The position numbers were made by a program, and so were the translations under genes. From the NCBI GenBank assembly GCA_014750165.1, contig GCA_014750165.1_4319.1: 45,917 nucleotides of DNA; one strand, given 5' to 3'. The stretch's first letter is position 1, and every line of letters begins with the position of its first letter. The notes beneath the pieces are model-generated. The model was not told the origin of the DNA. It did not search any database and saw only the letters and a program-made list of their open reading frames with translations. This stretch comes from a phage. Below, piece after piece: positions 2,902-30,178 of this stretch.

Positions 2902-3221
2902 AACGAGCGGTGTATCTACAGTACCAGTCAGAGCCAACAGATGCCGAACTGGAAGCTATTGGGATGCGCCGCTCCGATTACGAAGATGAAGAGCCTGAAG
3001 TTTTACACTTCGACGAAAACATGATGAAGGCGTGGGACATTTACTGTTCAATGGCTACGCAATGGCGAGTCGGAGCTAACGGAGCTACAGGCCTAGATTA
3101 CAACGTGCTAAATTTCCTCTTTAGAGTGTATAATGTTTCTGAAGAAGAATTGGTACTCAGCGATTTACGCATCCTTGAAGCTAAGGCTCTTGAGATGATG
3201 GATAACCTGAGAAAAAAATAA
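2587..3221 (+). CDS. tail assembly chaperone G-T fusion by programmed -1 frameshift
   Basis: Second ORF (track 2910..3221) is in -1 frame relative to 2587..2901 and has no independent ATG; slippery site A AAA AAC at 2892..2898 immediately before the frame-0 stop. Confidence 0.55.
2892..2898 (+). promoter_or_regulatory. -1 ribosomal frameshift slippery heptamer A AAA AAC
   Basis: X XXY YYZ heptamer in frame with upstream ORF, followed by TAA; -1 reading continues into 2910..3221 frame. Confidence 0.55.
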
Positions 3222-3256
3222 CCCGCTTCGGCGGGTTTTCTATTATGGAGGCTTAG

Positions 3257-6241
3257 ATGGCAACAAATGAATTAGCCGGAATCACACTAGCCGTAGACGT
3301 CTCGCAAGTAGACAGGGGCACGCAATCCCTACAGAAGTTCAGGCAAGCTAACCAGCAAGCCGCTTCCGGCATTAGTGAATTCGTCAATGCTGAGCAGGTT
3401 GCTAAAAACCAGGCAAGAGACACAGCTCGCGCACTGGCTGAACAGCAAGCATCTTTAGCTAAATTGCAAACAGCTATCGACCCAACGGCTGCAAAGTTCC
3501 GCAAGCTGCAAGAGGCCGCAGTGGGTCTTGATAAGGCATTCGCGGCTGGCGTAGTTCCTGATGAGGAATTTTTCCGATTAGGCGAGGCGATTGAAACGCA
3601 GAACGCAAAACTTGCTCGCTCACGTGCAGCGCTAACTGAAGAGGGAAGAGCGGCTGCTCAGGCTGCAAAGGATAAGGCAAAAGCGAAGGCTGAAGCTGAT
3701 AGATTCATTGCATCACTTGAGCGTCAGGCTCAAGCAGCGACATTGACGCGAGAGGAGTACCTAAAGTTACAAGCGGCCCAGCTTGGAGTTAGTTCCCAGG
3801 CTGCACCAATCATTGACAGAATCGCCGACGCATCACAGAAGGCAAATACCCAGTTAATTGCTCAGAGTAAGGCTTTTCAGAAATCAGGATTAAGCGCCGG
3901 GCAATACAAGAATGCCATATCTCAACTACCAGCGCAGATTACTGATATTGGCACGTCGCTTGCTGGCGGAATTCCGATTTGGCTTATTGCAATTCAGCAG
4001 GGCGGGCAAATTAAGGATGCTTTTGGTGGTATTGGCAACACCTTTAGATTCGCGCTTGCGGCCTTAAATCCATTCAATGTTGCTGTTGGTGTTTTGGGTG
4101 GGGCTCTTGTGGCTCTTGGTGTTGGTGCGGCTCAGGCTGAAAGTGAATTCAGGGCGTTAAACTCCGCAATTGCGTTCTCAAACAACTCTACAATCGCATC
4201 AATCTCTCAGGTTAGAGAGTTGGTTAGCTCTGTTTCTGATGCAACGGGTGCCACCAGAGGACTTGTGACTAGCATCGCAACAAGCCTTACTGAGCAAGGG
4301 AACCTTACGCTGACGCAGATTGACAAGATTACTAAATCGACCGCAAGATGGGCGCAGTTGACAGGTAAGGATGCGAAGGAGATTACTGGTTACTATAACC
4401 AGATTGCGAGCGACCCAATACAGGGTTTAGTTGATTTGGATAAGCGCTTTAACTTCCTCACGCAGGGGCAGTTGACGACAATCGAAAACCTGAGAAAGAC
4501 AAAGGGAAAGGTTGAGGCTGTTACCGCCGCAATTGACATTTTCAGCAAGTCGCAGGAAGCCAACCTTAACGACATAGCGGCGCAGTTAACTCCGCTTGAG
4601 CTAGCCTGGAATGATTTCAGAAAGTACATCTCTGATATCTGGGATGCAATTAGTCGTAGAACGGTTGGGGCGCTAAACCTTTTTGTTGATGTAATCGCCG
4701 GAACGATTGAACAGATTAGGGTGTTCATTAACCAGGGCGACGTGCTGATTGGTGAGTTTGTAATCAGTGCAACGCAAGCGCTGCAAAACATCCCTGGTCT
4801 TGGCGATGCTGGAAATAATGTAATATCTGAGCAGCAGAAGATTATCGATGCTGCCAAGAGGCAAAACCTTGAGCTGGAAAAGTCCATCAGGGAGAGAGAT
4901 GCCAGAATCAGAGAGGGAGAACTTGGTTACGTTACTCGCAGGGAAAATCAGAATACCAATGAGCAATCAGGGACCGATGAGGAATTCGCAAAAAGGAAGA
5001 AGGCACTTCAGGATGAGCTTGACGCGATCAAGAAGAATAGGAAAGAGAAAAAAGGGAGGGTTAAGGAGCAAAGGGATTTAACAATTGGTTACGAATCTGG
5101 CGTGTTGGCACTTCAGGCCCAACTCAAGGTGCTTCAGGAAAACAGGGATGTTGGCGCAGTAATAAGCAATGAGCGCAATCAGTACCTTCAGGAAGAGGCT
5201 AAATTCAGGATTCTTGAGCAGAGGCAGCTTGATGGCTCGATTACCAAAGAGCAAGCAAGACTTCTCATTGAGAAGGATAAAGTACTAGAATTGGCAAGGC
5301 AGAAGGCTGAACTTGGCGACCAGATTGTTTTGCAGGAGCGAGCCAATAAGTTAGCTGAAGATAACCGTAAAAAGATCCTTCAGATTAACAATGAAGCAAG
5401 TAATATCGACTTGGGTGCTGGCCTGTCTTCTCGGGAGCAGCAGAGACTTAAAGAGATACAGGCACTCAAATCAAATCAGGAAAACGCTGGTGGATCTGTC
5501 AATGACGTTGATTTCCAGCAATTACTGGAAGCAAGAAAGGAATATTACAAGCAGGAGGATAATCTTAGATCAGACTGGCAATCCGGTGTAACATCCACTC
5601 TCGCCGACTTGACAGAGAAGTACACTGACTACAACCAGATTGCTAAGGACTTAACCGTTGCGGCATTTGACGGGATAACAGAGCAAATTACAAACCTTGT
5701 AACCACTGGTGAGACGAACTTTAGGGAGTTCACCGCAAGCATCCTCAAAATGATTGCGAAGATTGCAACTCAATTGCTTTTGGTTAAGGCTATTGAATCT
5801 ACAATCAAGAGCTTTGGTGGTGACACTGGTGCAGGTAGCGCTTTCGAGTCAATAAAATCAGCAATTGGTTTTGCTGGCGGTGGCTACACTGGTGATGGTG
5901 GGAAATATCAGCCAGCAGGAACCGTACACCGCGGTGAGTTTGTATTCACAAAAGAAGCGACAAGCCGAATTGGTGTTAAAAACCTATACGCACTGATGAA
6001 AGGTTATGCAAACGGCGGAGCGGTTGGTGGTCAATCTGGTTATGCTAATGGCGGCTTGGTTTCTAGTGGCTCAGATGTTAATGTTAGCGGCATCACTGTT
6101 AACGTAAACTCGGGTGTAGGTAGCGATCCGGAACAAGCTAAAGCATTGCAGAGTGGCGTTAAGGCAATAGTAGCGGAAGAGATTGCTCAGTCTTTCCAGC
6201 AAGGCGGCCGTGCTTATGCTTACCTTCGCGGATTCAACTAA
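3257..6241 (+). CDS. tail tape measure protein
   Basis: 994 aa, Ala/Gln-rich coiled-coil N-terminal two thirds, hydrophobic segment (GGIPIWLIAIQQGG...), Gly-rich C-terminus; position after G/GT. Confidence 0.85.
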   Translation: MATNELAGITLAVDVSQVDRGTQSLQKFRQANQQAASGISEFVNAEQVAKNQARDTARALAEQQASLAKLQTAIDPTAAKFRKLQEAAVGLDKAFAAGVVPDEEFFRLGEAIETQNAKLARSRAALTEEGRAAAQAAKDKAKAKAEADRFIASLERQAQAATLTREEYLKLQAAQLGVSSQAAPIIDRIADASQKANTQLIAQSKAFQKSGLSAGQYKNAISQLPAQITDIGTSLAGGIPIWLIAIQQGGQIKDAFGGIGNTFRFALAALNPFNVAVGVLGGALVALGVGAAQAESEFRALNSAIAFSNNSTIASISQVRELVSSVSDATGATRGLVTSIATSLTEQGNLTLTQIDKITKSTARWAQLTGKDAKEITGYYNQIASDPIQGLVDLDKRFNFLTQGQLTTIENLRKTKGKVEAVTAAIDIFSKSQEANLNDIAAQLTPLELAWNDFRKYISDIWDAISRRTVGALNLFVDVIAGTIEQIRVFINQGDVLIGEFVISATQALQNIPGLGDAGNNVISEQQKIIDAAKRQNLELEKSIRERDARIREGELGYVTRRENQNTNEQSGTDEEFAKRKKALQDELDAIKKNRKEKKGRVKEQRDLTIGYESGVLALQAQLKVLQENRDVGAVISNERNQYLQEEAKFRILEQRQLDGSITKEQARLLIEKDKVLELARQKAELGDQIVLQERANKLAEDNRKKILQINNEASNIDLGAGLSSREQQRLKEIQALKSNQENAGGSVNDVDFQQLLEARKEYYKQEDNLRSDWQSGVTSTLADLTEKYTDYNQIAKDLTVAAFDGITEQITNLVTTGETNFREFTASILKMIAKIATQLLLVKAIESTIKSFGGDTGAGSAFESIKSAIGFAGGGYTGDGGKYQPAGTVHRGEFVFTKEATSRIGVKNLYALMKGYANGGAVGGQSGYANGGLVSSGSDVNVSGITVNVNSGVGSDPEQAKALQSGVKAIVAEEIAQSFQQGGRAYAYLRGFN

Positions 6242-6271
6242 TTAATGGGGCTCCGGCCCCTAAGGATTTTT

Positions 6272-6622
6272 ATGGCTATTGATACTTTTAAATGGTGCAC
6301 TCAGATACAAAATGGAGGAGCCGCATTTTCCAACACGAACAATGTGCGAATCGTTAGCTTTGGTAATGGTTACGAGGCTAGAGGCACGGGAGGCTATCGC
6401 AGCAACAAGCGCAGCTACCAGATGACATACACTAACAAGGACTGGCGAGATGTGATGGATTTCTGCTTCAACCACATCATTACCCCGTTCTTCTGGACAA
6501 CTCCGCAGGGTGATACATCAATGTTTGTGATTCAACAGGATAGTATTAGCGTGACACCAGTCAGTAAGGAAGTTCAGACTGTAAACATGCAATTCGTGGA
6601 AGTATTTAGCTCAATGCGTTAA
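6272..6622 (+). CDS. minor tail protein (lambda M-like), putative
   Basis: In-frame part of track ORF 6245..6622 from ATG 6272 (AGGA-N5-ATG); track N-extension would translate a GC hairpin; position after tape measure. Confidence 0.5.
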   Translation: MAIDTFKWCTQIQNGGAAFSNTNNVRIVSFGNGYEARGTGGYRSNKRSYQMTYTNKDWRDVMDFCFNHIITPFFWTTPQGDTSMFVIQQDSISVTPVSKEVQTVNMQFVEVFSSMR

Positions 6623-6624
6623 AC

Positions 6625-6648
6625 TAGGCCCCATTAGGGGCTTTTTTA
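6625..6648 (+). terminator. rho-independent terminator
   Basis: GCCCC-ATTA-GGGGC hairpin followed by T6 run; same terminator-RBS module recurs before portal gene. Confidence 0.5.
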
Positions 6649-6660
6649 TTGGAGAAAATC

Positions 6661-7416
6661 ATGTTAAGTCCAAAGTTTGAAAATCAGTTGCAAAGTCTTT
6701 TCCCAGGCGAGATTGTGACTCTAATCCAGGTTGACGGAACCTCCTTTGGCTCTCTCGTTTATTCGTTCCATAATGAGAACATTTCATACACGCCAGAAGA
6801 GATCATGCTTGCCCAAATGAATGGCGAGCCACTGCCAGAGAAAACGATTACATTCCGTGGTGAAGAGTACGGCCCAAGACCTTTCGGCATCTCTGGCATC
6901 AATATGACTTCTGATGGCAAGGCAAACAAAGTTACGCTAACTGTATCAAACGTAGACCAGAGGATTAGCGCCTTGATTCGAACATACAACGGACTTGTTA
7001 AAGCTAAGGTTACCATATGGATTACTACGCGAGATAACATCAATGAAGACGGGAGTATTGCTGATGGAGATTATCGCAAATTCGTTTACTTCATTGAGCG
7101 ACCTAAGCAGGTTGATTACAAAACTGCGTCATTTGAGCTTAGTAGCCCGATGGATATGGATGGCATTTACATACCCGCACGGCTTGTTCAGTCTGTTTGT
7201 TATTGGGCGTCAAGGGGTTGGTATCGTAGCGGTAATGGATGCGACTACGCTGGTAATCGTTATTTTGACAAAGACGACAACCCGGTCAGTGACCCTTCTC
7301 TAGATTTCTGTGCGGGCACTGTTAACAGTTGCAAGATTAGATTCGGCGAGAATAATCAGCTTTCATTTGGTGGATGCGCAGCAGCAAGCCTTCAAGCCAA
7401 AGCGAATCAATCATAG
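6661..7416 (+). CDS. minor tail protein (lambda L-like)
   Basis: ATG 6661 after GGAGAAAATC; C-terminal Cys cluster (CYWASRGW...CDYAG...CAGTVNSC...FGGC) typical of L-like tail tip proteins; track start 6649 is a TTG inside the RBS. Confidence 0.6.
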   Translation: MLSPKFENQLQSLFPGEIVTLIQVDGTSFGSLVYSFHNENISYTPEEIMLAQMNGEPLPEKTITFRGEEYGPRPFGISGINMTSDGKANKVTLTVSNVDQRISALIRTYNGLVKAKVTIWITTRDNINEDGSIADGDYRKFVYFIERPKQVDYKTASFELSSPMDMDGIYIPARLVQSVCYWASRGWYRSGNGCDYAGNRYFDKDDNPVSDPSLDFCAGTVNSCKIRFGENNQLSFGGCAAASLQAKANQS

Positions 7417-7430
7417 CACTTTTTGTTAAG
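7413..7430 (+). promoter_or_regulatory. gene-boundary palindrome cassette, variant copy
   Basis: ATAGCACTTTTTGTTAAG followed by GCGCA..TGCGC inverted repeat; precedes HNH gene. Confidence 0.4.
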
Positions 7431-7482
7431 AGGAAGGCGCAGGAATGCGCTATCCTCTAATCTCTTAAACTGGAGATTAAAA

Positions 7483-7968
7483 ATGAACTGGAATGAAATT
7501 TTCGAATACAGAGATGGCAAGATTTATTGGAAAGTTAGCCCTGGCAGGAGGGCTAAGGTTGGTTCGGAAGCTGGATCAAATCAAATAAAAGGGTATAGAT
7601 TTGTGAAATTTCACGGAGTTTTATATATGACACACAGGGTTATTTGGGAGATGCATAACTGTGAAATACCGCATGGAATGGAGGTTGACCATTTAAATCA
7701 CATTAGGGACGATAACAGGATAGAGAATTTAAGAGTTGTTACAAAGTCAATTAATCAGAGGAATGCATCTAAAAGAATTGATAATAAAAGCGGTTTTACA
7801 GGCGTTTCTTGGTATCCCAAATATTCAAAGTGGAATGCTTACGCGACAGTAAATTCCAAGAGGTTTAATCTTGGTTACTTTGAATCAAAGCAAGATGCCT
7901 ATGTGGCTGTTAAAAAATTTAGGTCCATAAATGATTTTCATAAAAACCATGGAGTTGATTTATGTTAA
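7483..7968 (+). CDS. HNH homing endonuclease
   Basis: MNWNEIFEYRDGKIYWK...; HNH core EVDHLNHIRDDNRIENLR; ATG 7483 after GGAGA; paralogous to 27993..28485 and 34044..34535. Confidence 0.8.
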   Translation: MNWNEIFEYRDGKIYWKVSPGRRAKVGSEAGSNQIKGYRFVKFHGVLYMTHRVIWEMHNCEIPHGMEVDHLNHIRDDNRIENLRVVTKSINQRNASKRIDNKSGFTGVSWYPKYSKWNAYATVNSKRFNLGYFESKQDAYVAVKKFRSINDFHKNHGVDLC

Positions 7969-22882: not shown

Positions 22883-24877
22883 ATGTTGCCTATCGAGAAG
22901 CTGGTTGCAAACTTCGATAAAGAAAGAATCAAGCAGATTCAGAAAGATTATCAGTTTGGCGAGATAACCCCTTACGAGTTCCAGTGCGTAACATTCGATG
23001 CAATCGGAAAGGCTATTGGAAAGTACGAGGCCCCATTTATCGCTGACCTTTCCGTGTCTGCGGGTAAGACAATTATTCTCGCTATGATTGGAAAGCGTAT
23101 GGAGCAGCTTGGTCTTCCTTATATGGTCCTCTCTCGCCAGTCAGAGATAATCAGCCAGAACTCAGAAGAGCTTCGCAACTTCGGCATCCGTAACAGCGTC
23201 TATTGCGCTGGCCTTAACGTTAAATCAGTTTACTACCCAACCATAGTCGCTAGTGAAGGTACCGCGGCTAACGGCTTGTTTAAGGGGCTTGGTGACTATG
23301 TTCCGGCAGTTATCGCAATCGATGAGTGTCACATGCTTGATGCTATGGATATCGTTGAAGCCGAGGAGAACGAAGAAACATTTGAGCAAATGAGCACAAA
23401 GAAAGGTGAGATGGTATTTAAGGATGGTGTTAATACCGGGTTGCTTGGCACTGGCCGCGCGCAGTACACGCTAATCATTACCGAGATGAAACGTCGTTGT
23501 CGTGAGAAGTACGGTCGCGAGCTTAGGATTTTTGGCCTTACTGGTAGCCCATATCGTAACAACGATCACATTGTCGTTAGTAACCAAAATGTCCGTGGAT
23601 TCTGGCGCAAAACGGTAATACAAGTACCAACAAATTACCTTGTTGATTTGGGATTCGTTGTTCCAACCGTTTACGGAGAGGTTGGTGATTTGGGTTACGA
23701 CCTTGCAGAGTTTGCGCCAGACGGAAGCGATGGCGTTAAAGACTTTAGCAAGAAAGAAATGGAAGCAATGGCTGCAAAGATTCACGACAACCAATCCATG
23801 ACTCAAAGGATAATGGGTTTTGTTGTAAAAATACTTGAGACTCGAAACGCCGCATTGGTCACCTGTGCTGGCAAACTCCATTGTGATGAGGCTGCTGCGG
23901 CACTCCCAGACGGATACCCCTACGCCATCATCACAGACTCCACTGGAGAGAGGAAGCGCAGAGAGATTCTAGCTGATTGCCAGACTGGAAAGTACAAAAT
24001 AATATTCCAGATTGGCTGTCTAACTACGGGCGTAAACCAGCCATTGTGGGATACCAGCGTTATACTGCGCAAGATTGGCAGTTTGACTTTGATGATTCAG
24101 CTTCTTGGTCGTGGCATGCGAAAACTAAAAAAGGCGCACATAGATGCGGGGTTCAAGAAGGAGGATCACTTGGTATTAGACTTTGCCGGAGCGCTGGATG
24201 ATATGGCCGAGCTTTACTTTGACCCAATAATTGAAGAAATTCAGGCTGAGAAGTTCAAGTCCTCAAGGAAAGGTGGTGATGAGGCCCGTCAGTGCCCGCA
24301 ATGTGGATATGAGAACTCACCATTTGCTCGACGCTGTGGCAATAAGATTGATGGTGTTAGATGCGATCACTTCTTTCAGTTCACAACTTGCGAAGACATT
24401 ACGGACCCACAAACTAAATCGGTAATTAAAAAGGGATGTGGCGCTCGTAACGACATAGCGGCAAAGGTTTGCCGAGAGTGCGGTGAGATGCTTAAAGACC
24501 CGAATGCTAATCTGACCGGTAAGATGTATCGTCGAGGAGATTACTTGCGCGTTTATGATTTCCAGATTGGATTGAGTAAAAATCAAACAGGAATAGTAGT
24601 TAAATACAACATCATGGCACATAACGGAGAGAGGTTTAACGCGTGGGAATTCTTTAACCCTGAGTCTGACCATCGAGTTTGCAGTGTTCTATGGAAAAAC
24701 TTCTGCCTAGCTCATATTGAGAATCGAACAGAAGCAGCACGAATTGGAAGATTAAAGAATGCTAGAATGATCATGACCAACGTAGATAAGTTCCGTGCGC
24801 CAGTGCAAGTAACACACAGAAAAAACGGCAAAGGAAAGGACGTGATCGCGTTTAAGAATTTTGGAGAATTGAAGTGA
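22883..24877 (+). CDS. SF2 DNA helicase with C-terminal zinc ribbons
   Basis: Motif I SAGKT, motif II DECH, motif VI QLLGRGMR; C-terminal CPQCG...CDHF...CRECG cysteine pairs. Confidence 0.75.
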   Translation: MLPIEKLVANFDKERIKQIQKDYQFGEITPYEFQCVTFDAIGKAIGKYEAPFIADLSVSAGKTIILAMIGKRMEQLGLPYMVLSRQSEIISQNSEELRNFGIRNSVYCAGLNVKSVYYPTIVASEGTAANGLFKGLGDYVPAVIAIDECHMLDAMDIVEAEENEETFEQMSTKKGEMVFKDGVNTGLLGTGRAQYTLIITEMKRRCREKYGRELRIFGLTGSPYRNNDHIVVSNQNVRGFWRKTVIQVPTNYLVDLGFVVPTVYGEVGDLGYDLAEFAPDGSDGVKDFSKKEMEAMAAKIHDNQSMTQRIMGFVVKILETRNAALVTCAGKLHCDEAAAALPDGYPYAIITDSTGERKRREILADCQTGKYKIIFQIGCLTTGVNQPLWDTSVILRKIGSLTLMIQLLGRGMRKLKKAHIDAGFKKEDHLVLDFAGALDDMAELYFDPIIEEIQAEKFKSSRKGGDEARQCPQCGYENSPFARRCGNKIDGVRCDHFFQFTTCEDITDPQTKSVIKKGCGARNDIAAKVCRECGEMLKDPNANLTGKMYRRGDYLRVYDFQIGLSKNQTGIVVKYNIMAHNGERFNAWEFFNPESDHRVCSVLWKNFCLAHIENRTEAARIGRLKNARMIMTNVDKFRAPVQVTHRKNGKGKDVIAFKNFGELK

Positions 24878-25293
24878 ACATAACAGATAAAGAATATTAC
24901 ATTGAGTTTTACCCAGGTTCAGTTAAGTCATGCCCGAAAGAGGATGACGAACAAATCTTTTGCTCTGATTGGGTTAAGTATAACTATCCAGAGATGGTAT
25001 TTTTCCACTGTGTGAATGAGGGTAAGAAAACCATTGGTCAAGCAAGAAAAGACCAGGCAAAGGGTTTGCTCAAGGGCGTATCAGACTGCATGTTTTTGAT
25101 ACCTGAATCCGTGCGAGGAAGGTATCCATTTGGCGCAATAGAGCTAAAGAGAGCTGGAAAAACACAGGCTAGCCCAGTCAGTAACGAGCAGAAGTCATTC
25201 CTGAAAAGTGTAAGGGAATCAGGAGGTTTCTCCGCTGTGGCTTACGGTCGCGAGGGTTTTCTGGCAGCATTCAAAGAAATGATTTCTAAATAG
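24874..25293 (+). CDS. VRR-NUC domain nuclease
   Basis: 139 aa; D...ELK core (FLIPESVRG...AIELKRAGK) of the PD-(D/E)xK VRR-NUC type; GTG start overlapping helicase stop. Confidence 0.6.
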   Translation: MNITDKEYYIEFYPGSVKSCPKEDDEQIFCSDWVKYNYPEMVFFHCVNEGKKTIGQARKDQAKGLLKGVSDCMFLIPESVRGRYPFGAIELKRAGKTQASPVSNEQKSFLKSVRESGGFSAVAYGREGFLAAFKEMISK

Positions 25294-25308
25294 CACGAAT
25301 TGCTAAAC
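25288..25308 (+). promoter_or_regulatory. gene-boundary palindrome cassette
   Basis: AAATAGCACGAATTGCTAAAC then TATAGT and CATAGAAACGA; precedes 25371. Confidence 0.5.
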
Positions 25309-25370
25309 TCGATTTTAAAAGATGTTGTATAGTTACTTCATAGAAACGAAACACATAGAGAGATAAAGAA

Positions 25371-25577
25371 ATGAAATTAATGAAATTGAAACCTATCGAT
25401 ATCCGAGTTGGTGATTATATATATAGTGGATATACAGGAAAAAAGAAATGGCGAAGAGTATCTGAAATAATTGTTCAATCAGCATATAGGTATACATTAA
25501 TTATGAATTCGTGGAACTTATCAGCTGGTAGTTGTTGTGAATTTTTAGTAAAGGGTGTTCGTAACAATACTTTTTAA
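25371..25577 (+). CDS. hypothetical protein
   Basis: 68 aa, cassette-driven. Confidence 0.4.
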   Translation: MKLMKLKPIDIRVGDYIYSGYTGKKKWRRVSEIIVQSAYRYTLIMNSWNLSAGSCCEFLVKGVRNNTF

Positions 25578-25580
25578 TTA

Positions 25581-25599
25581 ATAGCACGAATTGCTAAAG
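25581..25599 (+). promoter_or_regulatory. gene-boundary palindrome cassette
   Basis: ATAGCACGAATTGCTAAAG then hairpin around TATTAT and CATCGAAACGA. Confidence 0.5.
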
Positions 25600-25660
25600 A
25601 CTAATCGGTGAGGTGGTGTATTATCACCACATCGAAACGAAACGCAGAGAGATAAACAAA

Positions 25661-25855
25661 ATGGCTACTATCTACACTGGTAAATTCTACGAATCACGCA
25701 AAACCGGTTACGAATATGAATTAGTAATCACCCCTGATGGTTATGTTCTTGACGATGGAGATGGTTACGCATTTGATGTTAGCCCAACTTACAAAGATGA
25801 TTTAGAAACTGTTAAAAACGCATTTGGCGAAAAATTTGACGAGGTATCAGAATAA
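25661..25855 (+). CDS. hypothetical protein
   Basis: Internal start MATIYTGKFY after GAGAGA; track start 25613 overlaps cassette. Confidence 0.4.
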   Translation: MATIYTGKFYESRKTGYEYELVITPDGYVLDDGDGYAFDVSPTYKDDLETVKNAFGEKFDEVSE

Positions 25856-26076
25856 TGGCAATTTTTAAATTTGAGCACCAATTGGAAGTGTTTAAGTTAA
25901 TGGCAGTTGAGGAGCTAAAGAAATCTGGATATAACAAAAACCCGTGGGACTTAGCATTTTGCCTGGATATGAGCTTTGAAGAAGACTACATGAACACTGA
26001 TATCGAGACATGGCGTGACCGTATGGTTGCTGACATTGCGGAAATGAAAAAAGATTGCCCAGAGGATTTTGAATAA
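25855..26076 (+). CDS. hypothetical protein
   Basis: TAATG overlap with upstream gene. Confidence 0.4.
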   Translation: MAIFKFEHQLEVFKLMAVEELKKSGYNKNPWDLAFCLDMSFEEDYMNTDIETWRDRMVADIAEMKKDCPEDFE

Positions 26077-26201
26077 TGAAAATTGTAGACAAAGAGATGT
26101 TTAGGGTTGCCCAGAATTTTGCTGAATTTGCAGTTGAGTTTCAATCAGAAGAGCATTGGATGTGCGCTAGAGAATATCTAAAACTGGCTTACGGACTATG
26201 A
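26076..26201 (+). CDS. hypothetical small protein (41 aa)
   Basis: ATGA-coupled ORF below track cutoff; approx coords. Confidence 0.3.
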   Translation: MKIVDKEMFRVAQNFAEFAVEFQSEEHWMCAREYLKLAYGL

Positions 26202-26446
26202 TAGTTGAAACCGGACGCGCCGCCGTATGGGCGCACTGTGGAGAGGCGGGGTTGCAGAATGACATTAAGCAGATATCCCGCTTCTTTGACATAAAAGATA
26301 TCAGTGTTGTTTTTAATGGTAAATTCTCTTACATGGATGAGCGACCAAGAAAATACGTAAGAGTTAAGCCAGGCGTCAGGATTGATGTTAATGAGTTCCT
26401 TAAATCTGAGGGATTCAAGTTTAAGATAACCAAGCCTAAGGATTGA
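26198..26446 (+). CDS. hypothetical protein
   Basis: ATGA-coupled. Confidence 0.4.
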   Translation: MIVETGRAAVWAHCGEAGLQNDIKQISRFFDIKDISVVFNGKFSYMDERPRKYVRVKPGVRIDVNEFLKSEGFKFKITKPKD

Positions 26447-26448
26447 GT

Positions 26449-26700
26449 ATGTTGGGTTTAGATTTTCAGCCAGAGCATTACGATTTAGCATATGGTAAAA
26501 GTGGTGCAAAGTTTAGAGCGATCCCTATTGCTGACTGGTTCCCTCCTGATTATGTGGATGTGAACGCAAAAACTAAAGACGGCAATTGGGTGCAGATTTA
26601 TTACTCGCCAGCATGTGGAAACCTTTGTATGACTGACCTTGATCAGAAATTAGCAATTAGTGCGGAAGTTATCGACTACTGGTTGAAAGAAGTTGAATGA
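26449..26700 (+). CDS. hypothetical protein
   Basis: ATG 26449 after AAGGA; track start is a TTG 6 nt upstream. Confidence 0.4.
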   Translation: MLGLDFQPEHYDLAYGKSGAKFRAIPIADWFPPDYVDVNAKTKDGNWVQIYYSPACGNLCMTDLDQKLAISAEVIDYWLKEVE

Positions 26701-26783
26701 AGAGCCTGATACTAGTAGCATTAGTCCCACTGTTTAGCTTTACTATCTTATACTTTATCGTAATGAATTAAGGAACTTATATA

Positions 26784-27920
26784 ATGGCAACTGCAAAAAT
26801 CACTAACGAAGAGCTGCGTGAAGAGCTTGCTAATGGCATGACAAACAAGGCAATCGCAGAGAAATACGGAATGAACATTCGCAACGTTGAATTGCGTCGT
26901 AGTAAATTGGCAAAGAGTGGAGAATTGCACGGAAACCCAGGTATCAAGAAGTTAGTTCCTGACGGTTATATGGTTAAGGGAACCTCCACGATGATTGATG
27001 CGGATGGTAACGAGAAGCTGCGCTGGGTTAAAACCTCTGTAGACAATGAGCGACTTGAGGTTTTAATGGAGCAAGCTCGAGAAGCATTTTGCTCTGATTT
27101 GCCAAAGGCTATTCCATCTGAATCACCGAATGTTAACTTTGATGATAACACGCTTGCGATGTATCCAGTTTTTGATTTACACATTGGGGCGATGGCTCAC
27201 AAACATGAGTGTGGCGAAAACTATGATACAGCAACAGCAGAGAAAGTAATGAATGGGTTCTTTGACTACGCTGTTGATAAGGCTCCAAACTCTAAGAATG
27301 CTGTATTGGTATTGGGTGGTGATTTCCTGCATTACGACTCTCTGGAGGCTAAAACCCCGGCATCAGGTCATATCTTAGATTCTGACAGTCGTTACGCCAA
27401 GATTGTTTATGTTGCAATCCGGTCAGTGCGTCGTGCCATTTCTCGAATGATGGAAAAGCACCAAGTTATTGAAATTAAAGTAATAAGTGGCAATCACGAC
27501 GAGGCAGGAATGGTTTGGCTCCGCGCTGCACTTGCTGCATTTTATGAAGATGAGCCTCGCGTAAATGTTGATGTTAGCCCAGCCGCAATGATGATGACCA
27601 GCTTTGGAACGACGCTTATTGGATACACTCACGGGCACCAAATGCGGAAAGCCGATACTCGACTAACTGTTATGGCAACTGATTTTCGTAAGTTATTTGG
27701 CCAAAGTGAGTATGTTTACACACATAGTGGCCACTGGCATTCGCAGAAGATTACAGAAACAAACTTGGGAATTGATGAGGTTCATGGGCAGCTTGGAAGC
27801 CCTGACGCGTACTCCGCAAATGGCGGTTGGCGTTCTCAACGTCAAGCGGCAGTCATTGTCTACCATAAAGAATTCGGTGAAGTTGGCCGATTCATTTGTC
27901 GCCCTAAAATGTTTGGCTAA
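26784..27920 (+). CDS. HTH-fused calcineurin-like metallophosphoesterase
   Basis: N-terminal HTH-like TNKAIAEKYGMNIRNVELRRSKL; MPP motifs D-x-H (FDLHIG), GDxxD (GGDFLHYD), GNHDE, THGH, GHWH. Confidence 0.65.
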   Translation: MATAKITNEELREELANGMTNKAIAEKYGMNIRNVELRRSKLAKSGELHGNPGIKKLVPDGYMVKGTSTMIDADGNEKLRWVKTSVDNERLEVLMEQAREAFCSDLPKAIPSESPNVNFDDNTLAMYPVFDLHIGAMAHKHECGENYDTATAEKVMNGFFDYAVDKAPNSKNAVLVLGGDFLHYDSLEAKTPASGHILDSDSRYAKIVYVAIRSVRRAISRMMEKHQVIEIKVISGNHDEAGMVWLRAALAAFYEDEPRVNVDVSPAAMMMTSFGTTLIGYTHGHQMRKADTRLTVMATDFRKLFGQSEYVYTHSGHWHSQKITETNLGIDEVHGQLGSPDAYSANGGWRSQRQAAVIVYHKEFGEVGRFICRPKMFG

Positions 27921-27940
27921 TAGCGCTTTTTGTTAAAACG
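27919..27940 (+). promoter_or_regulatory. gene-boundary palindrome cassette, variant
   Basis: AATAGCGCTTTTTGTTAAAACG then ATACCCGC..GCGGGTAT hairpin, ATCGAAACGG. Confidence 0.4.
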
Positions 27941-27992
27941 ATACCCGCGAAAGCGGGTATTATTGTTTTATCGAAACGGCAGGGGGATTGAA

Positions 27993-28485
27993 ATGAATTG
28001 GCATGATTTTTTTATACTATAAGGATGGAAAGGTTTTCTGGAGAGATCCGCACTGCACGAGATTGAAGCCAGGTGATGAGGCTGGTAGTAGGCACCATAG
28101 GGGTTATTGGTATATTCGTAGATATGACAAAACAATGTCAAGGCACCGAATCGTATGGGAGATGCACAACGGAACAATACCAGACGGTATGGAGATAGAT
28201 CATATAAATCACGTGCCTGGTGATGACAGAATTGAAAACCTAAGAATGGTCACAAGAAGGCAAAACAATCAAAACAAAAAATTAAATGAAAGAAATACAA
28301 GCGGACACGTCGGGGTTAGCTGGAACAAGAAGACAAACAAATGGAGAGCAATGATAGGCATAAGGGGAGAGGACGGAAAGAGGAAAACTTTATACGTTTA
28401 TTATGGTGATTCTTTCGATGATGCGGTATCAGCAAGAAAGAAAGCAGAGGCTGAGCACTCGTTTCATGAAAATCACGGTAAATAG
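27993..28485 (+). CDS. HNH homing endonuclease, interrupted by frameshift at T7 tract
   Basis: ATG 27993 with strong RBS (AGGGGGA) encodes MNWHDFF then stops; HNH body (track 28003..28485) is in +1 frame; an 8th T would restore MNWHDFFLYYKDGKVFW, matching the paralog N-terminus MNWNEIFEYRDGKIYWK. Confidence 0.7.
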
Positions 28486-28501
28486 CACTTTTTGCCTAAC
28501 T
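28481..28501 (+). promoter_or_regulatory. gene-boundary palindrome cassette, variant
   Basis: AAATAGCACTTTTTGCCTAAC then ATGCCG..CGGCAT hairpin and ATCGAAACGA. Confidence 0.4.
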
Positions 28502-28555
28502 CATGCCGTAGAAATGCGGCATAATCACCAAATCGAAACGAGATGAGGAATTGTA

Positions 28556-29029
28556 ATGATTTATGTATTTGATATCGATGGAACTATAGCTAATAATGAG
28601 CATAGAAGCCACCTCTTGCCATCCAGTGACCTTCACTTGACTTCAAGTTGGAAGGATTACAATAAAGCCTGTTCCGGAGACTCACCAATAATTCCAATGA
28701 TAAAAATGATGAATTCTTTAGCTGAGTCATCTCAAGTTTACATAATGACCTCAAGAAGTGATGAAGTTGAATGGAGAACGCTTCAGTGGCTTCATGATAA
28801 TGATGTTGAGTATGATTCGATATACATGAGAAGTCGACATGACAACCGAAAAGATTACAAAATAAAAGAGGAATGGCTTACTGAAATCAGTGGTGGCGAT
28901 AAAAGCAATGTGGTTATTTTTGAAGATAACCCGCAAGTAATCAAGCACTTAAGGAGCTTCGGATATACTGTAATGTCAGTTTGCGAATATGAAGACCTAC
29001 CTAAAGACTGCGAATCTCACGGAGAATGA
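28556..29029 (+). CDS. HAD-superfamily phosphatase
   Basis: N-terminal DIDGT motif (HAD motif I, DxDGT); 157 aa; ATGA-coupled to downstream kinase. Confidence 0.6.
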   Translation: MIYVFDIDGTIANNEHRSHLLPSSDLHLTSSWKDYNKACSGDSPIIPMIKMMNSLAESSQVYIMTSRSDEVEWRTLQWLHDNDVEYDSIYMRSRHDNRKDYKIKEEWLTEISGGDKSNVVIFEDNPQVIKHLRSFGYTVMSVCEYEDLPKDCESHGE

Positions 29030-29031
29030 AA

Positions 29032-29586
29032 ATGACTAAATTATTTATCCTTAATGGCCCAGCTGGAGTTGGCAAGGACACTATAGCCGATATCATGGTT
29101 GAGACTGGTGTCGCCAAAGAAAAGGTATCATTCAAGTCACCAATGTTTAACGTTGTAAAAGGAATGCTATCAAGCGATGAATTTGATGGATTCATCAAGA
29201 ATTACGACAATAGAGACTATAAGGAATCACCTCATGGATTTCTTAGCGGTATGACAGTTCGTGAATTTATGATTTGGATTAGCGAGTCTGTAATGAAGCC
29301 AGTCTTTGGTGATGATGTTTTCGGTAAAAGGCTAGCACAGTCACTTGGTGATGGTTGCTACATTTGCGCTGACGGTGGGTTTGCTAGCGAGATTAAGCCA
29401 CTGATCGACACTGGTGTTGAGGTAACGTTAATCAGGTTGCATAGGGAAGGGTACACATTTTATGGCGATAGTCGCTCATACATTCACGGTGTGTGTGCAA
29501 GAGAGATTGATGTTCATGTTGTTGATGGTGATATTAATGGAACATCAGCATTGGTAAGGCACGTAATAAATAGCACGAATTGCTAA
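29032..29586 (+). CDS. P-loop nucleotide kinase (dNMP kinase-like)
   Basis: N-terminal LFILNGPAGVGKDT Walker A resembling phage deoxynucleotide monophosphate kinases; start set at second ATG by RBS spacing. Confidence 0.6.
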   Translation: MTKLFILNGPAGVGKDTIADIMVETGVAKEKVSFKSPMFNVVKGMLSSDEFDGFIKNYDNRDYKESPHGFLSGMTVREFMIWISESVMKPVFGDDVFGKRLAQSLGDGCYICADGGFASEIKPLIDTGVEVTLIRLHREGYTFYGDSRSYIHGVCAREIDVHVVDGDINGTSALVRHVINSTNC

Positions 29587-29588
29587 AG
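29568..29588 (+). promoter_or_regulatory. gene-boundary palindrome cassette
   Basis: AAATAGCACGAATTGCTAAAG, TATCAT, CATCGAAACGA; supplies NSTNC-stop tail of kinase. Confidence 0.5.
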
Positions 29589-29654
29589 ATAATATTAAAA
29601 ACTGGGTTATCATTAACACATCGAAACGAGATGAACCAAACGAGGAAAAACAAA

Positions 29655-29831
29655 ATGACTAAAATGATTTACTGCACCAAGAACAACTCCAAGACGCTTC
29701 CATTTACAGTTAACCAGCCGTATAGCGCAGAGTACCAGGGCGATGGATACTACAAGATTTATGGCGACGATATGACGCACATCTTAGCGCCGATTGATGG
29801 TTCGTTAGTTGAATTTATTGTCGCTGACTAG
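29655..29831 (+). CDS. hypothetical protein
   Basis: Internal start MTKMIYCTK after RBS; track N-extension overlaps cassette. Confidence 0.4.
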   Translation: MTKMIYCTKNNSKTLPFTVNQPYSAEYQGDGYYKIYGDDMTHILAPIDGSLVEFIVAD

Positions 29832-29865
29832 CGCATAAAAAACATAGCGTTACGAACGGGGAGCC

Positions 29866-29893
29866 TTTTGGCTCCCTTTTTTTATGCTTCTTT
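29866..29893 (+). terminator. rho-independent terminator
   Basis: GGGGAGCC-TTTT-GGCTCCC hairpin plus T7 run. Confidence 0.55.
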
Positions 29894-29950
29894 TCCGAGC
29901 GGTGATAATGTATCATTCTTTTACTAACTTAAACATTGACAAATACATAA

Positions 29951-30178
29951 ATGGAGGATCACATGAGGGAAGTAATCAACGCTGCTACTGCGTCAACTGG
30001 CGGTGCTGCGGTAACTGGCGCAGCAACTGGTCAAATGACTATAGCAATAATCAGCCTCATCGCTCTTATTATTTTTGGTGTCTGGGGCGCTTACTGGAAG
30101 TTCAAAGATAGCCAGGCGATTCGTCGAGCACTTGAATCTGGCGACCTAAAAACAGCAATAAAGATAAGGAGTAAGTAA
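29951..30178 (+). CDS. holin (putative)
   Basis: 75 aa with one strongly hydrophobic segment (MTIAIISLIALIIFGVWGAYW) and charged C-terminus; immediately upstream of endolysin; start may be ATG 29963. Confidence 0.55.
   Translation: MEDHMREVINAATASTGGAAVTGAATGQMTIAIISLIALIIFGVWGAYWKFKDSQAIRRALESGDLKTAIKIRSK

Follow-up and report, generated by a model that had tools for sequence, protein, structure and literature searches.

A protein of the metallophosphoesterase (MPP) fold that serves in the destruction of host DNA is known from phage T5. T5 A1, a predicted metallophosphatase with the DNA-binding protein A2 as its binding partner, is both necessary and sufficient to degrade host DNA and is toxic on its own; it is essential and is also required for the second step of DNA transfer. 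In cluster-A mycobacteriophages, the early protein MPE Gp48 (A10ZJ24), which has phosphodiesterase activity and is toxic, damages the genomic DNA of the host and serves in counter-defence. Among T1-like phages, Bas12 is restricted by PUA-Cal-HAD, reported to be a sensor of m6-dAMP from phage-induced chromosome degradation. A 2026 preprint (bioRxiv 10.64898/2026.02.16.706125) found that Bas01_0050 of Escherichia phage AugustePiccard (Bas1), when expressed, is toxic to E. coli and that phages escaping the defence system DRT7/UG10 carry missense or frameshift mutations in this gene. According to the same preprint, the frameshift mutants still form plaques, so that the gene is dispensable, and in lambda, escape from DRT7 maps to gam, which belongs to DNA-end/RecBCD biology. 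Here, we show that an ortholog of Bas01_0050 in a T1-like coliphage joins an N-terminal helix-turn-helix (HTH) to a catalytically complete metallophosphoesterase whose nearest structural neighbors are nucleases.

The stretch of DNA analyzed (the window; 45,917 nucleotides, contig GCA_014750165.1_4319.1) is a complete Drexlerviridae genome of the Rtp/ACG-M12-like type. The coding sequence of the 378-amino-acid HTH-metallophosphoesterase (26784-27920, plus strand, as are all features below) begins with ATG, and a Shine-Dalgarno sequence, AAGGA (26770-26774), can be read 9 nt 5' of it. The helicase/VRR-NUC operon ends with this gene, which lies directly upstream of the lysis cassette and is flanked by promoter-like elements of the same type as those preceding the structural genes. 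Genes for an HNH protein, a PNKP-type phosphatase, and a kinase lie 3' of it. Rtp61, the homolog of T1 gp16, is 98.4% identical over the full length, and Bas01_0050, which has the same synteny, is 72% identical, likewise from end to end. Both share the arrangement of HTH, hairpin, and MPP core as well as the place after helicase, VRR-NUC, and small open reading frames (ORFs). The downstream genes differ: Rtp lacks all three, and in Bas01 the place is taken by a homing endonuclease, with neither phosphatase nor kinase. Relative to Bas01_0050, residues 1-110 are 95% identical and the catalytic core about 62%, which marks the gene as a mosaic. Within the family, experimental data were found in the literature for Bas01_0050 alone; for T1 gp16, Rtp61, and the Drexlerviridae phosphoesterase, the literature searched offered nothing beyond genome-announcement tables.

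The protein matches phrog_704 ("DNA repair exonuclease") almost end to end (E=8.7e-156, residues 4-377 on profile positions 2-389 of 390). This family is widespread among phages and has been annotated there before. It occurs in more than 2,000 phage genomes and about 4,700 clusters at 50% identity, with hosts that include Escherichia, Klebsiella, Salmonella, Vibrio, and Campylobacter, under database names that conflict: "DNA repair exonuclease," "phosphoesterase," "DNA binding protein," "DNA polymerase II small subunit," "oxidoreductase," and "hypothetical protein." T5 A1 has 556 amino acids and belongs to phrog_1745 only, whereas our protein and its distant homologs fall into phrog_704 and phrog_284; as a candidate specific relative, A1 was rejected after hhalign gave a probability of 10% over 19 columns around motif III. 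MPP fold and DNA-binding function form a heterodimer in T5 A1/A2 but are fused in our phage, and A1 is essential, in contrast to Bas01_0050. A dNMP phosphatase, Dmp, is encoded near A1, much as a HAD phosphatase is encoded near the gene studied here. Motif I of Gp48 begins at residue 10, leaving this protein of a phage of actinobacteria without an N-terminal HTH or hairpin module.

The calcineurin-like catalytic core (aa 120-372, 27141-27899) was assessed in an alignment of 148 relatives with about 30-40% identity. D131 and H133 of motif I (D131-L-H133, 27174-27182) are invariant, as are G179 and D180 of motif II (G179-D180-F-L-H183-Y-D185, 27318-27338), N237 and H238 of motif III (G236-N237-H238-D239-E240, 27489-27503), H283 of motif IV (T282-H283-G284-H285, 27627-27638), and G316 and H319 of motif V (G316-H317-W318-H319, 27729-27740); H183 and G284 are conserved in 98%, H317 in 95%, and D185 in 91%. 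The ligand set of the superfamily and the catalytic histidine are thus complete (D131, H133, D180, N237, H238, H283, H317, and H319), each residue being invariant or at least 95% conserved. The earlier note, made from the sequence alone, had recognized all five phosphoesterase motifs, and all five indeed fall on invariant or near-invariant columns; judged by sequence, this agreement is far beyond chance. Its reading of motif II as GDxxD needs correction, since the actual form is GDFLH-x-D, the Mre11-type GDxxH(x)D and not the classical GDxxD. Between motifs II and III lies a family-specific insert, T191-x4-H196-x-L198-D199-x-D201-x-R203 (27354-27392), in which T191 is conserved in 99-100% and L198, D199, D201, and R203 in at least 91%; we recognize nothing equivalent to it in the classical MPP motif set. 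The Pfam model PF00149 (Metallophos) scored 18.7 bits, below its gathering cut-off of 21.5, and 33 of 119 relatives matched it at E <=0.01, which indicates a divergent MPP subfamily.

The fusion to an N-terminal HTH, also noted earlier, is real at the level of the predicted fold. AlphaFold places helices at residues 8-16, 21-27, and 32-45 (pLDDT 94-96), giving a three-helix HTH (aa 8-45, 26805-26918), followed by a flexible linker (aa 46-60, 26919-26963; pLDDT 64-76) and a family-specific beta-hairpin and helix (aa 61-104, 26964-27095) with near-invariant G75 and W81. The linker motif K-A-A-x-x-G-Y-S-P-E-H-D-M-T-H, kept in most of the relatives whose N-terminal fragments were compared (n = 147), has diverged here. 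With this sequence as query, HTH matches were sub-threshold (GerE in Pfam, E=0.05; the C-terminal HTH of TtrR/FixJ in NCBIfam, about 1e-3), and the family profile reached the GerE structure 1fse at E=0.027. Among 119 family members, the same region was matched by HTH_1 (23 members), HTH_8 (19), Sigma70_r4_2 (13; best E=1.5e-9), and GerE (7; best E=2.4e-8). Both the three-helix bundle and the profile matches among relatives identify a tri-helical HTH of the broad class that includes the LuxR/GerE and sigma70 region 4 types. An N-terminal segment of at least 30 amino acids is present in 147 of the 151 top sequences; alignments to most of the distant homologs start at about aa 55-64. The N-terminal module varies in type from member to member, from LysR-, Fis-, sigma70 r4-, and LuxR-type HTHs to an I-HmuI NUMOD-like module. 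Since the module is nearly always present while its type is variable, the conserved trait appears to be a predicted DNA tether.

The AlphaFold model is confident (pLDDT 94) and has the MPP fold, a beta-sandwich core with flanking helices. Its nearest structures are nucleases, namely, the PolD DP1 exonuclease and Mre11/SbcD; for ApaH, one of the families proposed earlier for comparison, no model appeared among the NCBIfam or Pfam results. The extra histidine of motif II is shared with Mre11, and HMMER aligns GDFLH to GDLLH of Thermotoga maritima Mre11. However, the protein ends about 60 amino acids past motif V and lacks the C-terminal capping domain and the Rad50-binding helices of Mre11/SbcD, carrying the N-terminal HTH and hairpin instead. 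A Rad50/SbcC partner was likewise absent: no ORF for a long coiled-coil ATPase exists in the whole genome, and the annotation of ACG-M12, a genome with 90% identity, includes none either. DP1 shows 13% identity and is a replisome subunit, the archaeal 3'-5' proofreading exonuclease, as opposed to a phage accessory gene product; its OB-fold domain is missing here, where the N terminus consists of HTH, beta-hairpin, and helix, and the genome has no large polymerase ORF for a DP2 partner. At the sequence level, the family profile reached Mre11 in the PDB only marginally (E about 0.06), no curated SbcD or Mre11 model appeared in the Pfam and NCBIfam results, and the NCBIfam hits were confined to sub-threshold HTH and PdeM fragments. 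Two other assignments were discarded. The ligase-associated nuclease PdeM/MPE scored 13.3 bits against a cut-off of 150 (TIGR04123), and PdeM of bacterial Lhr-MPE-ligase operons is a far smaller, structurally distant protein without an HTH. ArnD was the only match in a single-protein PDB sequence search, and a chance one (E=0.11).

Taken together, sequence and model make a DNA-directed nuclease, in whatever role, the probable identity of the protein. It would be a stand-alone phosphodiesterase of the Mre11/SbcD/PolD-DP1 structural type with a binuclear metal center, probably Mn2+. The N-terminal HTH would hold the catalytic domain on duplex DNA, where the active site formed by D131, H133, D180, N237, H283, H317, and H319 would cut phosphodiester bonds, with H238 as the putative transition-state histidine; cleavage may take place at DNA ends, nicks, or single-stranded stretches. 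What we infer from the available evidence is that DNA is the substrate and the host chromosome the target, as well as which metal is used and the cleavage polarity. For a nuclease of this kind, we consider host DNA more likely to be the target than phage DNA in need of repair. The target could be the host chromosome or host DNA ends, and the protein might serve as an accessory function in host takeover and nucleotide salvage, analogous to T5 A1/A2 and MPE Gp48. DRT7/UG10 might then detect T1-like phages through the resulting DNA damage or perturbed DNA-end metabolism. We propose this host-directed role tentatively, at rather less than even chances. It is supported by the complete metal-ligand set conserved in the 148 relatives, by the Mre11-like alignment of motif II, and by the near-universal N-terminal module that is swapped among DNA-binding types. 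The toxicity of the ortholog and its mutation in DRT7 escapers, both taken from the literature on Bas01_0050, agree with it, as does the restriction of Bas12 by a sensor of chromosome degradation. T5 A1 and Gp48 may be counted as precedents; as A1 is not a specific relative, that parallel is one of analogy only. Against it, the sequence link to Mre11 is weak, the toxicity could equally arise from hydrolysis of an essential nucleotide, and the sparing of phage DNA is unaccounted for.

The gene neighborhoods bear on whether host or phage DNA would be cut. Our survey covered 194 loci of 32 lineages, which were compared by BLAST clustering and local jackhmmer searches with 13 seed proteins; the neighboring ORFs came from simple ORF calling, which yields spurious ORFs in GC-rich loci. 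The location of the gene differs widely among phage groups, and no conserved partner gene emerged across these loci, no neighbor family being found in more than 5 of the 32 lineages. This points to autonomous action of the protein and favors a host-directed nuclease. Recurrent neighbors encode SSB (adjoining in 5 of the 32 lineages), ligase, RusA, endonuclease VII, a 5'-3' exonuclease, helicase and VRR-NUC, as well as a PNKP-type HAD phosphatase and a dNMP-kinase-like protein (the HAD and kinase genes in 3-4 of 32). Such DNA-metabolism genes are in line with a nuclease acting on host DNA, but the ligase, RusA, and SSB contexts fit repair or recombination of phage DNA equally well. The gene of Guernseyvirinae belongs to an island on the opposite strand within the tail module; it adjoins a superinfection-immunity gene and lies away from the replication genes, a setting typical of accessory or takeover genes that again favors a host-directed role.

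The same DNA-tethered, Mre11/SbcD-like nuclease might instead trim ends, flaps, hairpins, or blocked termini of phage DNA and act in recombination-dependent replication, in the formation of concatemers, or in repair. It would do so alongside RecE/Erf/SSB, the helicase, and VRR-NUC, plus a ligase in those phages that encode it. We regard this role as possible, if somewhat unlikely. The gene closes the helicase/VRR-NUC operon here, in Rtp, and in Bas01; in Campylobacter phages it lies directly 3' of the DNA ligase gene with RusA nearby, and in the podovirus phiEa1H between the 5'-3' exonuclease/endonuclease VII and the PNKP-like/ligase genes. These placements, the SSB neighbor, the name "DNA repair exonuclease" in PHROG and RefSeq, and the lambda DRT7 escapers in gam all suit an enzyme acting on phage DNA. 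Yet repair and recombination neighbors are conserved in few lineages only, and the gene stands apart from replication genes in Guernseyvirinae. The phage provides neither a Rad50/SbcC partner nor a capping domain, ortholog frameshift mutants still plaque, and strong toxicity of the lone protein would be less expected of an end-trimming enzyme.

Returning to the host-directed nuclease, it is tempting to speculate that this HTH-tethered, Mre11/DP1-like enzyme, as a nuclease that has long escaped identification, serves T1-like phages and many other siphoviruses and podoviruses in attacking the host chromosome or in disturbing RecBCD and DNA-end metabolism. DRT7/UG10 would then read the enzymatic activity and not the protein, and the interchangeable module would pick the DNA to be cut, sparing the phage genome. 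All of this is, on balance, unlikely to hold jointly.

The earlier note had named degradation of host signaling nucleotides as a candidate function, which found no specific support here and is weaker than the reading as a DNA nuclease. As a small-molecule nucleotide phosphodiesterase or pyrophosphatase, the protein would destroy CBASS, Pycsar, Thoeris, or type III CRISPR messengers or remodel nucleotide pools, with the HTH for regulation or localization. The toxicity of Bas01_0050 would allow for such an activity, but a near-universal DNA-binding module exchanged among types, nucleases as the nearest structures, and the Mre11-like motif II all speak against it and make it quite unlikely. HAD and kinase neighbors occur in too few lineages (3-4 of 32) to help, and the PADLOC defence and anti-defence models returned no family at E <=1. 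The known anti-signal enzymes Acb1 and Apyc1 are small, have no DNA-binding domain, and are not known to be toxic.

Still less probable is an end-healing phosphoesterase, a 2',3'-cyclic phosphodiesterase or 3'-phosphatase on broken RNA or DNA, that would reverse damage by host nucleases together with the adjacent PNKP-type phosphatase, P-loop kinase, and ligase. There is some synteny behind this idea: the trio of MPP, HAD_PNKP (PF25109, E=4e-17), and P-loop kinase recurs at 37-40% identity in phiEa1H, a podovirus as opposed to the siphovirus studied here, with a DNA ligase gene following it there, and Campylobacter phages have the ligase-MPP pair. Clostridium thermocellum Pnkp uses an MPP domain for end-healing chemistry.

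A DP1-like 3'-5' proofreading exonuclease, assisting host Pol III or a phage primase-polymerase in phages without a DNA polymerase of their own, is highly improbable: the DP2-like partner and the OB domain are both missing, the HTH has no counterpart in DP1, the ortholog is dispensable, and the gene is likewise carried by phages like phiEa1H of the Autographiviridae, a family whose members normally encode their own DNA polymerase. We give equally little credence to a lambda-PP-like protein phosphatase or a transcription regulator with the MPP domain as sensor. In favor of these, Ser/Thr phosphatases of the MPP fold are known from some phages, the HTH is similar to sigma70 region 4 and to regulators of the LuxR type, and the genome holds about 20 copies of an operator-like dyad (TAGCA-N5-TGCTA). 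The combination of GDxxDRG, GNHE, and close structural similarity that marks lambda-type/PPP Ser/Thr phosphatases, another family put up for comparison earlier, was not found.

The family is among the larger phage protein families and is inconsistently annotated. If its members are DNA-tethered nucleases that damage host DNA, this would explain host takeover by T1-like phages, which are widely used as therapeutic and model phages, would provide a molecular trigger for DRT7/UG10, and would set apart, within the Mre11/DP1 nuclease type, a branch that works without a partner. If they are repair enzymes or nucleotide phosphodiesterases instead, present database names are misleading. Either way, judging by the ortholog data, the gene determines how sensitive a phage is to a defence system, a point of relevance to the choice and engineering of phages.

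Some regulatory features of the locus deserve mention. A link between the TAGCA-N5-TGCTA dyad and the HTH of the protein was considered and rejected, as the dyad occurs in Braunvirinae loci only and is absent from the other 201 family-carrying loci. A search of positions 25000-30000 against Rfam found no RNA families. At 20 nt past the stop codon lies a terminator-like stable hairpin followed by a U-rich run (27940-27961; RNA fold -26.2 kcal/mol, z=-4.0), which sits within a degenerate copy (27917-27980) of the repeated promoter-like element of this phage.

The metallophosphoesterase (MPP) gene occupies 26784-27920 on the plus strand and encodes 378 amino acids from an ATG start codon, exactly as the earlier note had placed it. 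A ribosome-binding site (AAGGA) precedes the ATG by 9 nt, and a stable hairpin with a U-rich tail (27940-27961; -26.2 kcal/mol, z=-4.0) follows 20 nt past the stop codon. Minus-strand ORFs within the gene are all 72 amino acids or shorter, and an Rfam scan of 25000-30000 gave no family matches. In its entirety, the window is one T1-like siphovirus genome (Drexlerviridae, Braunvirinae), complete and circularly permuted. It is close to Rtp, and over the 3-kb stretch compared (26000-29000) it shares about 90% nucleotide identity with ACG-M12 and ECH1. The Rtp ortholog Rtp61 (YP_399005), whose record carries the remark "highly similar to gp16 of phage T1", is 98.4% identical to the MPP protein. 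RefSeq names this protein "DNA repair exonuclease", which is a guess from the fold; homologs elsewhere are labelled phosphoesterase, metallophosphoesterase, DNA binding protein, putative phosphatase, oxidoreductase, or hypothetical protein. Two 44-kb genomes with about 88% nucleotide identity to the E. coli phage of the window, MG065688.1 ("Campylobacter phage A110b") and PP134917.1 ("Pseudomonas phage PsgS01F"), encode MPP proteins 96-97% identical to that of Bas03; their stated hosts look doubtful, and contamination or mislabelling may be involved.

The protein belongs to PHROG 704, which it matches over its full length (E=8.7e-156), with a weaker match to phrog_284 "exonuclease" (4e-17). 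By tblastn, the family was found in 2050 GenBank phage records, with hosts including Escherichia, Klebsiella, Salmonella, Vibrio, Campylobacter, Flavobacterium, and Rhodobacter. When 1.84 billion cluster representatives were searched exhaustively with HMMER, 4735 matched at E<=1e-3 and 1018 at E<=1e-30, mostly with lengths of 370-420 amino acids. In an alignment of 148 sequences with about 30-40% identity to the MPP protein, D131, H133, G179, D180, N237, H238, H283, G316, and H319 are invariant. Conservation reaches at least 90% at H183, D185, T191, L198, D199, D201, R203, G236, D239, R259, G275, G284, G306, H317, D341, G348, and G365, as well as at two N-terminal residues, G75 and W81. Since the binuclear-metal ligands and catalytic histidine of the calcineurin-like superfamily are thus present as a complete set, the enzyme should be active, as judged from its residues. 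Motif II had been described as GDxxD; it reads GDFLHYD, i.e., the GDxxH of Mre11 type, and HMMER aligned it to GDLLH of Thermotoga maritima Mre11. The segment that follows, T191-x4-H196-x-L198-D199-x-D201-x-R203, is particular to this family.

An AlphaFold2 model built on the 148-sequence alignment (mean pLDDT 94.4, pTM 0.82) comprises three helices (residues 8-45), a low-confidence linker (46-60), a beta-hairpin (62-86) with a helix (88-104), and the MPP core (120-372). Its highest-scoring structural neighbours were the PolD DP1 proofreading exonuclease (16.0, with 212 residues aligned), T. maritima Mre11 (14.8), and Staphylococcus aureus SbcD (14.6), followed by MJ0936 (13.9), the remaining Mre11 and SbcD structures (12.8-13.4), LpxH (13.3), Rv0805 (12.2), 5'-nucleotidases (about 9.7), Pseudomonas putida MPE (9.2), and PP5 (9.0). 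Foldseek ranked Mre11 at the top (5e-8) and DP1 next. Many phage homologs bear the automatic BFVD name "DNA polymerase II small subunit", and a GenBank curator's HHpred record for the Kagunavirus homolog gives 99.6% to Pyrococcus abyssi DP1. The ranking therefore makes nucleic-acid nucleases the closest solved structures, with a modest lead over other MPPs and just 13-18% identity.

Fold and motifs place the protein in the MPP superfamily, yet it scores under the Pfam gathering threshold. It should be classed neither as Mre11/SbcD, since a capping domain is missing, no Rad50/SbcC is encoded in the phage genome, and no curated model matched, nor as DP1, since both the OB domain and a DP2 partner are missing. 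Membership tests for lambda-type phosphatases, ApaH, PdeM, and T5 A1 each failed. Databases already contain this gene and family, and the ortholog was noted in a preprint; not described before is the family's standing as a partner-independent branch of Mre11/DP1-like type, whose hallmarks are a DNA-binding module that is interchangeable, a hairpin with conserved G75 and W81, and the conserved T191-R203 insert.

Against helix-turn-helix (HTH) models, the MPP sequence alone stayed below threshold (GerE 0.05, Sigma70_r4_2 0.24, TtrR/FixJ C-terminal HTH about 1e-3), and GerE (1fse) matched the family profile at E=0.027. When 119 relatives were scanned singly, HTH_1 was found in 23, HTH_8 in 19, Sigma70_r4_2 in 13 (best 1.5e-9), HTH_23 in 12, GerE in 7 (best 2.4e-8), and an I-HmuI NUMOD-like domain in 3. 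At least 30 residues precede the hairpin in 147 of 151 sequences (the query plus the 150 top representatives; median, 68); a few fall well short of this or have none, and two HTH copies occur in some. The Campylobacter phage homologs (317 amino acids) are without the module. Judging from these matches, the DNA-binding module varies in type and is kept in nearly all relatives, as would be expected if DNA were substrate or platform. Duplication affects the hairpin or the HTH in some family members. Most members also share a strongly conserved HTH-hairpin linker peptide, K-(K/R)-A-A-x-x-G-Y-S-P-E-H-D-M-T-H, which might mediate protein interaction or autoinhibition; in the clade of the window phage it has diverged to KLAKSGELHGNPGIKK (amino acids 41-56).

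Upstream of the MPP gene lie genes for an SF2 helicase (22883-24877) and a VRR-NUC protein (24874-25293), followed by five small ORFs of 41-85 amino acids (25371-26700; phrog_12951, 6031, 2676, 2817, and 4596) that Rtp, ACG-M12, and Bas01 share. Transcripts starting at promoter-like elements at 25291 and 25582 probably cover both these ORFs and the MPP gene. Beyond the gene and its hairpin come an HNH homing endonuclease (28003-28485), a PNKP-type HAD phosphatase (28556-29029; PF25109, 4e-17), and a P-loop kinase (29026-29586; phrog_139 "dNMP kinase"), with lysis genes next. The HNH gene is inserted between the MPP and phosphatase genes and has a paralog in the tail region (7423-7968), the two sharing a 100-nt repeat of 71% identity (7645-7744 and 28156-28255). 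This position holds no HNH gene in Rtp and a different one in Bas01 and DTL; neither Rtp nor Bas01 has the phosphatase and kinase genes.

Erwinia phage phiEa1H, a podovirus, has the order 5'-3' exonuclease, endonuclease VII, MPP, PNKP-like phosphatase, kinase, and DNA ligase, its phosphatase and kinase being 37% and 40% identical to those of the window. The trio of MPP, phosphatase, and kinase genes is syntenic between 26784-29586 and 3998-7200 of the collected locus of this Autographiviridae member. Elsewhere the MPP gene follows a DNA ligase gene, with RusA close by (Campylobacter phage CP30A), SSB and one small gene (a Vibrio phage), lysis genes (Rhodobacter phage RcKeef), or tail genes (marine contigs). 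In the Guernseyvirinae Kagunavirus fPoEco01 (locus positions 3633-5548) and Jerseyvirus S528 (3759-6240), a small island of opposite-strand genes, the MPP homolog among them, breaks up the tail gene cluster; the first gene of the island, adjoining the homolog, is one for superinfection immunity, and a DNA-binding or HNH-like gene lies close to its far end. We surveyed 194 loci from IMG/VR and GenBank, representing 32 lineages at 65% identity, by clustering flanking ORFs from a crude caller with BLAST and jackhmmer. No neighbour family occurred in more than 5 of the 32 lineages (SSB and endolysin, 5 each; kinase and HNH, 4 each; HAD_PNKP, 3; ligase, helicase, and VRR-NUC, 2 each), and the MPP-phosphatase-kinase association in just 3-4, so no partner is obligate for the MPP gene. 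DNA-metabolism genes are frequent, not invariable, neighbours.

Our literature search found no study of the family's biochemistry. Genetic evidence comes from Bas01_0050 of Escherichia phage AugustePiccard (Bas1), which we verified to be the ortholog (MZ501051, 38005-39135; 72% identity over 376 residues, shared synteny). According to one preprint (bioRxiv 10.64898/2026.02.16.706125), spontaneous Bas1 mutants that escape DRT7/UG10, a reverse-transcriptase defence, have missense or frameshift changes in this gene. [quoted passage not shown] Bas01_0050 is therefore dispensable for plaques, harmful alone, and needed for DRT7 action. Identity between the two proteins is uneven, 95% over residues 1-110 (HTH and hairpin) and 62% in the catalytic core, with nucleotide identity falling from about 0.9 to about 0.6 past roughly 300 nt (26784-27920 against 3001-4131 of the Bas01 locus), making the gene a mosaic and suggesting recombination at the domain boundary.

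The most economical reading, and on balance a probable one, is a stand-alone, DNA-tethered binuclear-metal nuclease, whose substrate, target, metal, and cutting polarity we infer. Its architecture and active site, its structural neighbours, the lack of a partner gene, and the orthology to Bas01_0050 are what the analysis established directly. We tentatively favour host DNA as its target, where it would serve takeover and nucleotide salvage, because of the toxicity and dispensability of Bas01_0050, the accessory-island location in Guernseyvirinae, the nucleotide-handling genes nearby in two lineages, and precedents in T5 and mycobacteriophages. T5 A1, a predicted metallophosphatase, is toxic; degradation of the host chromosome requires A1, and A1 suffices for it. 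Its heterodimer partner is the DNA-binding protein A2, and the gene for the dNMP phosphatase Dmp lies close by. Gp48, an MPE of cluster-A mycobacteriophages, is a toxic phosphodiesterase that disrupts host DNA. The likeness to A1 is one of analogy because A1 (phrog_1745; hhalign probability, 10%) is no specific relative of the family. According to a preprint, PUA-Cal-HAD senses m6-dAMP from phage-induced chromosome degradation and restricts the T1-like phage Bas12, an indirect hint that T1-like phages break down methylated DNA.

Second to a host-DNA role, and a possibility we rate as rather doubtful, is that the protein works on phage DNA itself during recombination or repair; gene contexts with ligase, RusA, SSB, and helicase point to this, as does the lambda gam parallel. 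Hydrolysis of signalling or pool nucleotides by the MPP protein is unlikely, and end healing with PNKP-like enzymes and ligase, as the phiEa1H gene order might suggest, is more improbable still. DP1-like proofreading and a role as protein phosphatase or regulator are both very improbable.

The window also contains an intergenic element of about 60 nt, present on both strands at about 20 sites (e.g., 2342, 14047, 14794, 15552, 21263, 25291, 25582, 29571, 36200, 36833, 37968, and 41141), with a degenerate copy at 27917-27980. It consists of a dyad TAGCA-N5-TGCTA (consensus AATAGCACGAATTGCTAAA), a 17-20-nt spacer that in many copies holds a copy-specific hairpin, a TATAGT-like hexamer, and CATCGAAACGA. 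Allowing at most one mismatch, 20 matches were observed against 1.9 expected by chance. The element resembles a sigma70-type promoter belonging to the phage itself, in which an operator-like dyad overlaps the -35 hexamer (TTGCTA), and is confined to Braunvirinae loci (Rtp, ACG-M12, Bas01, and the window; 0 of 201 other loci). Two pairs of direct repeats, 15656-15761/35020-35125 (106 nt, 85% identity) and 15885-15945/35241-35301 (61 nt, 75% identity), are both spaced about 19.4 kb apart.
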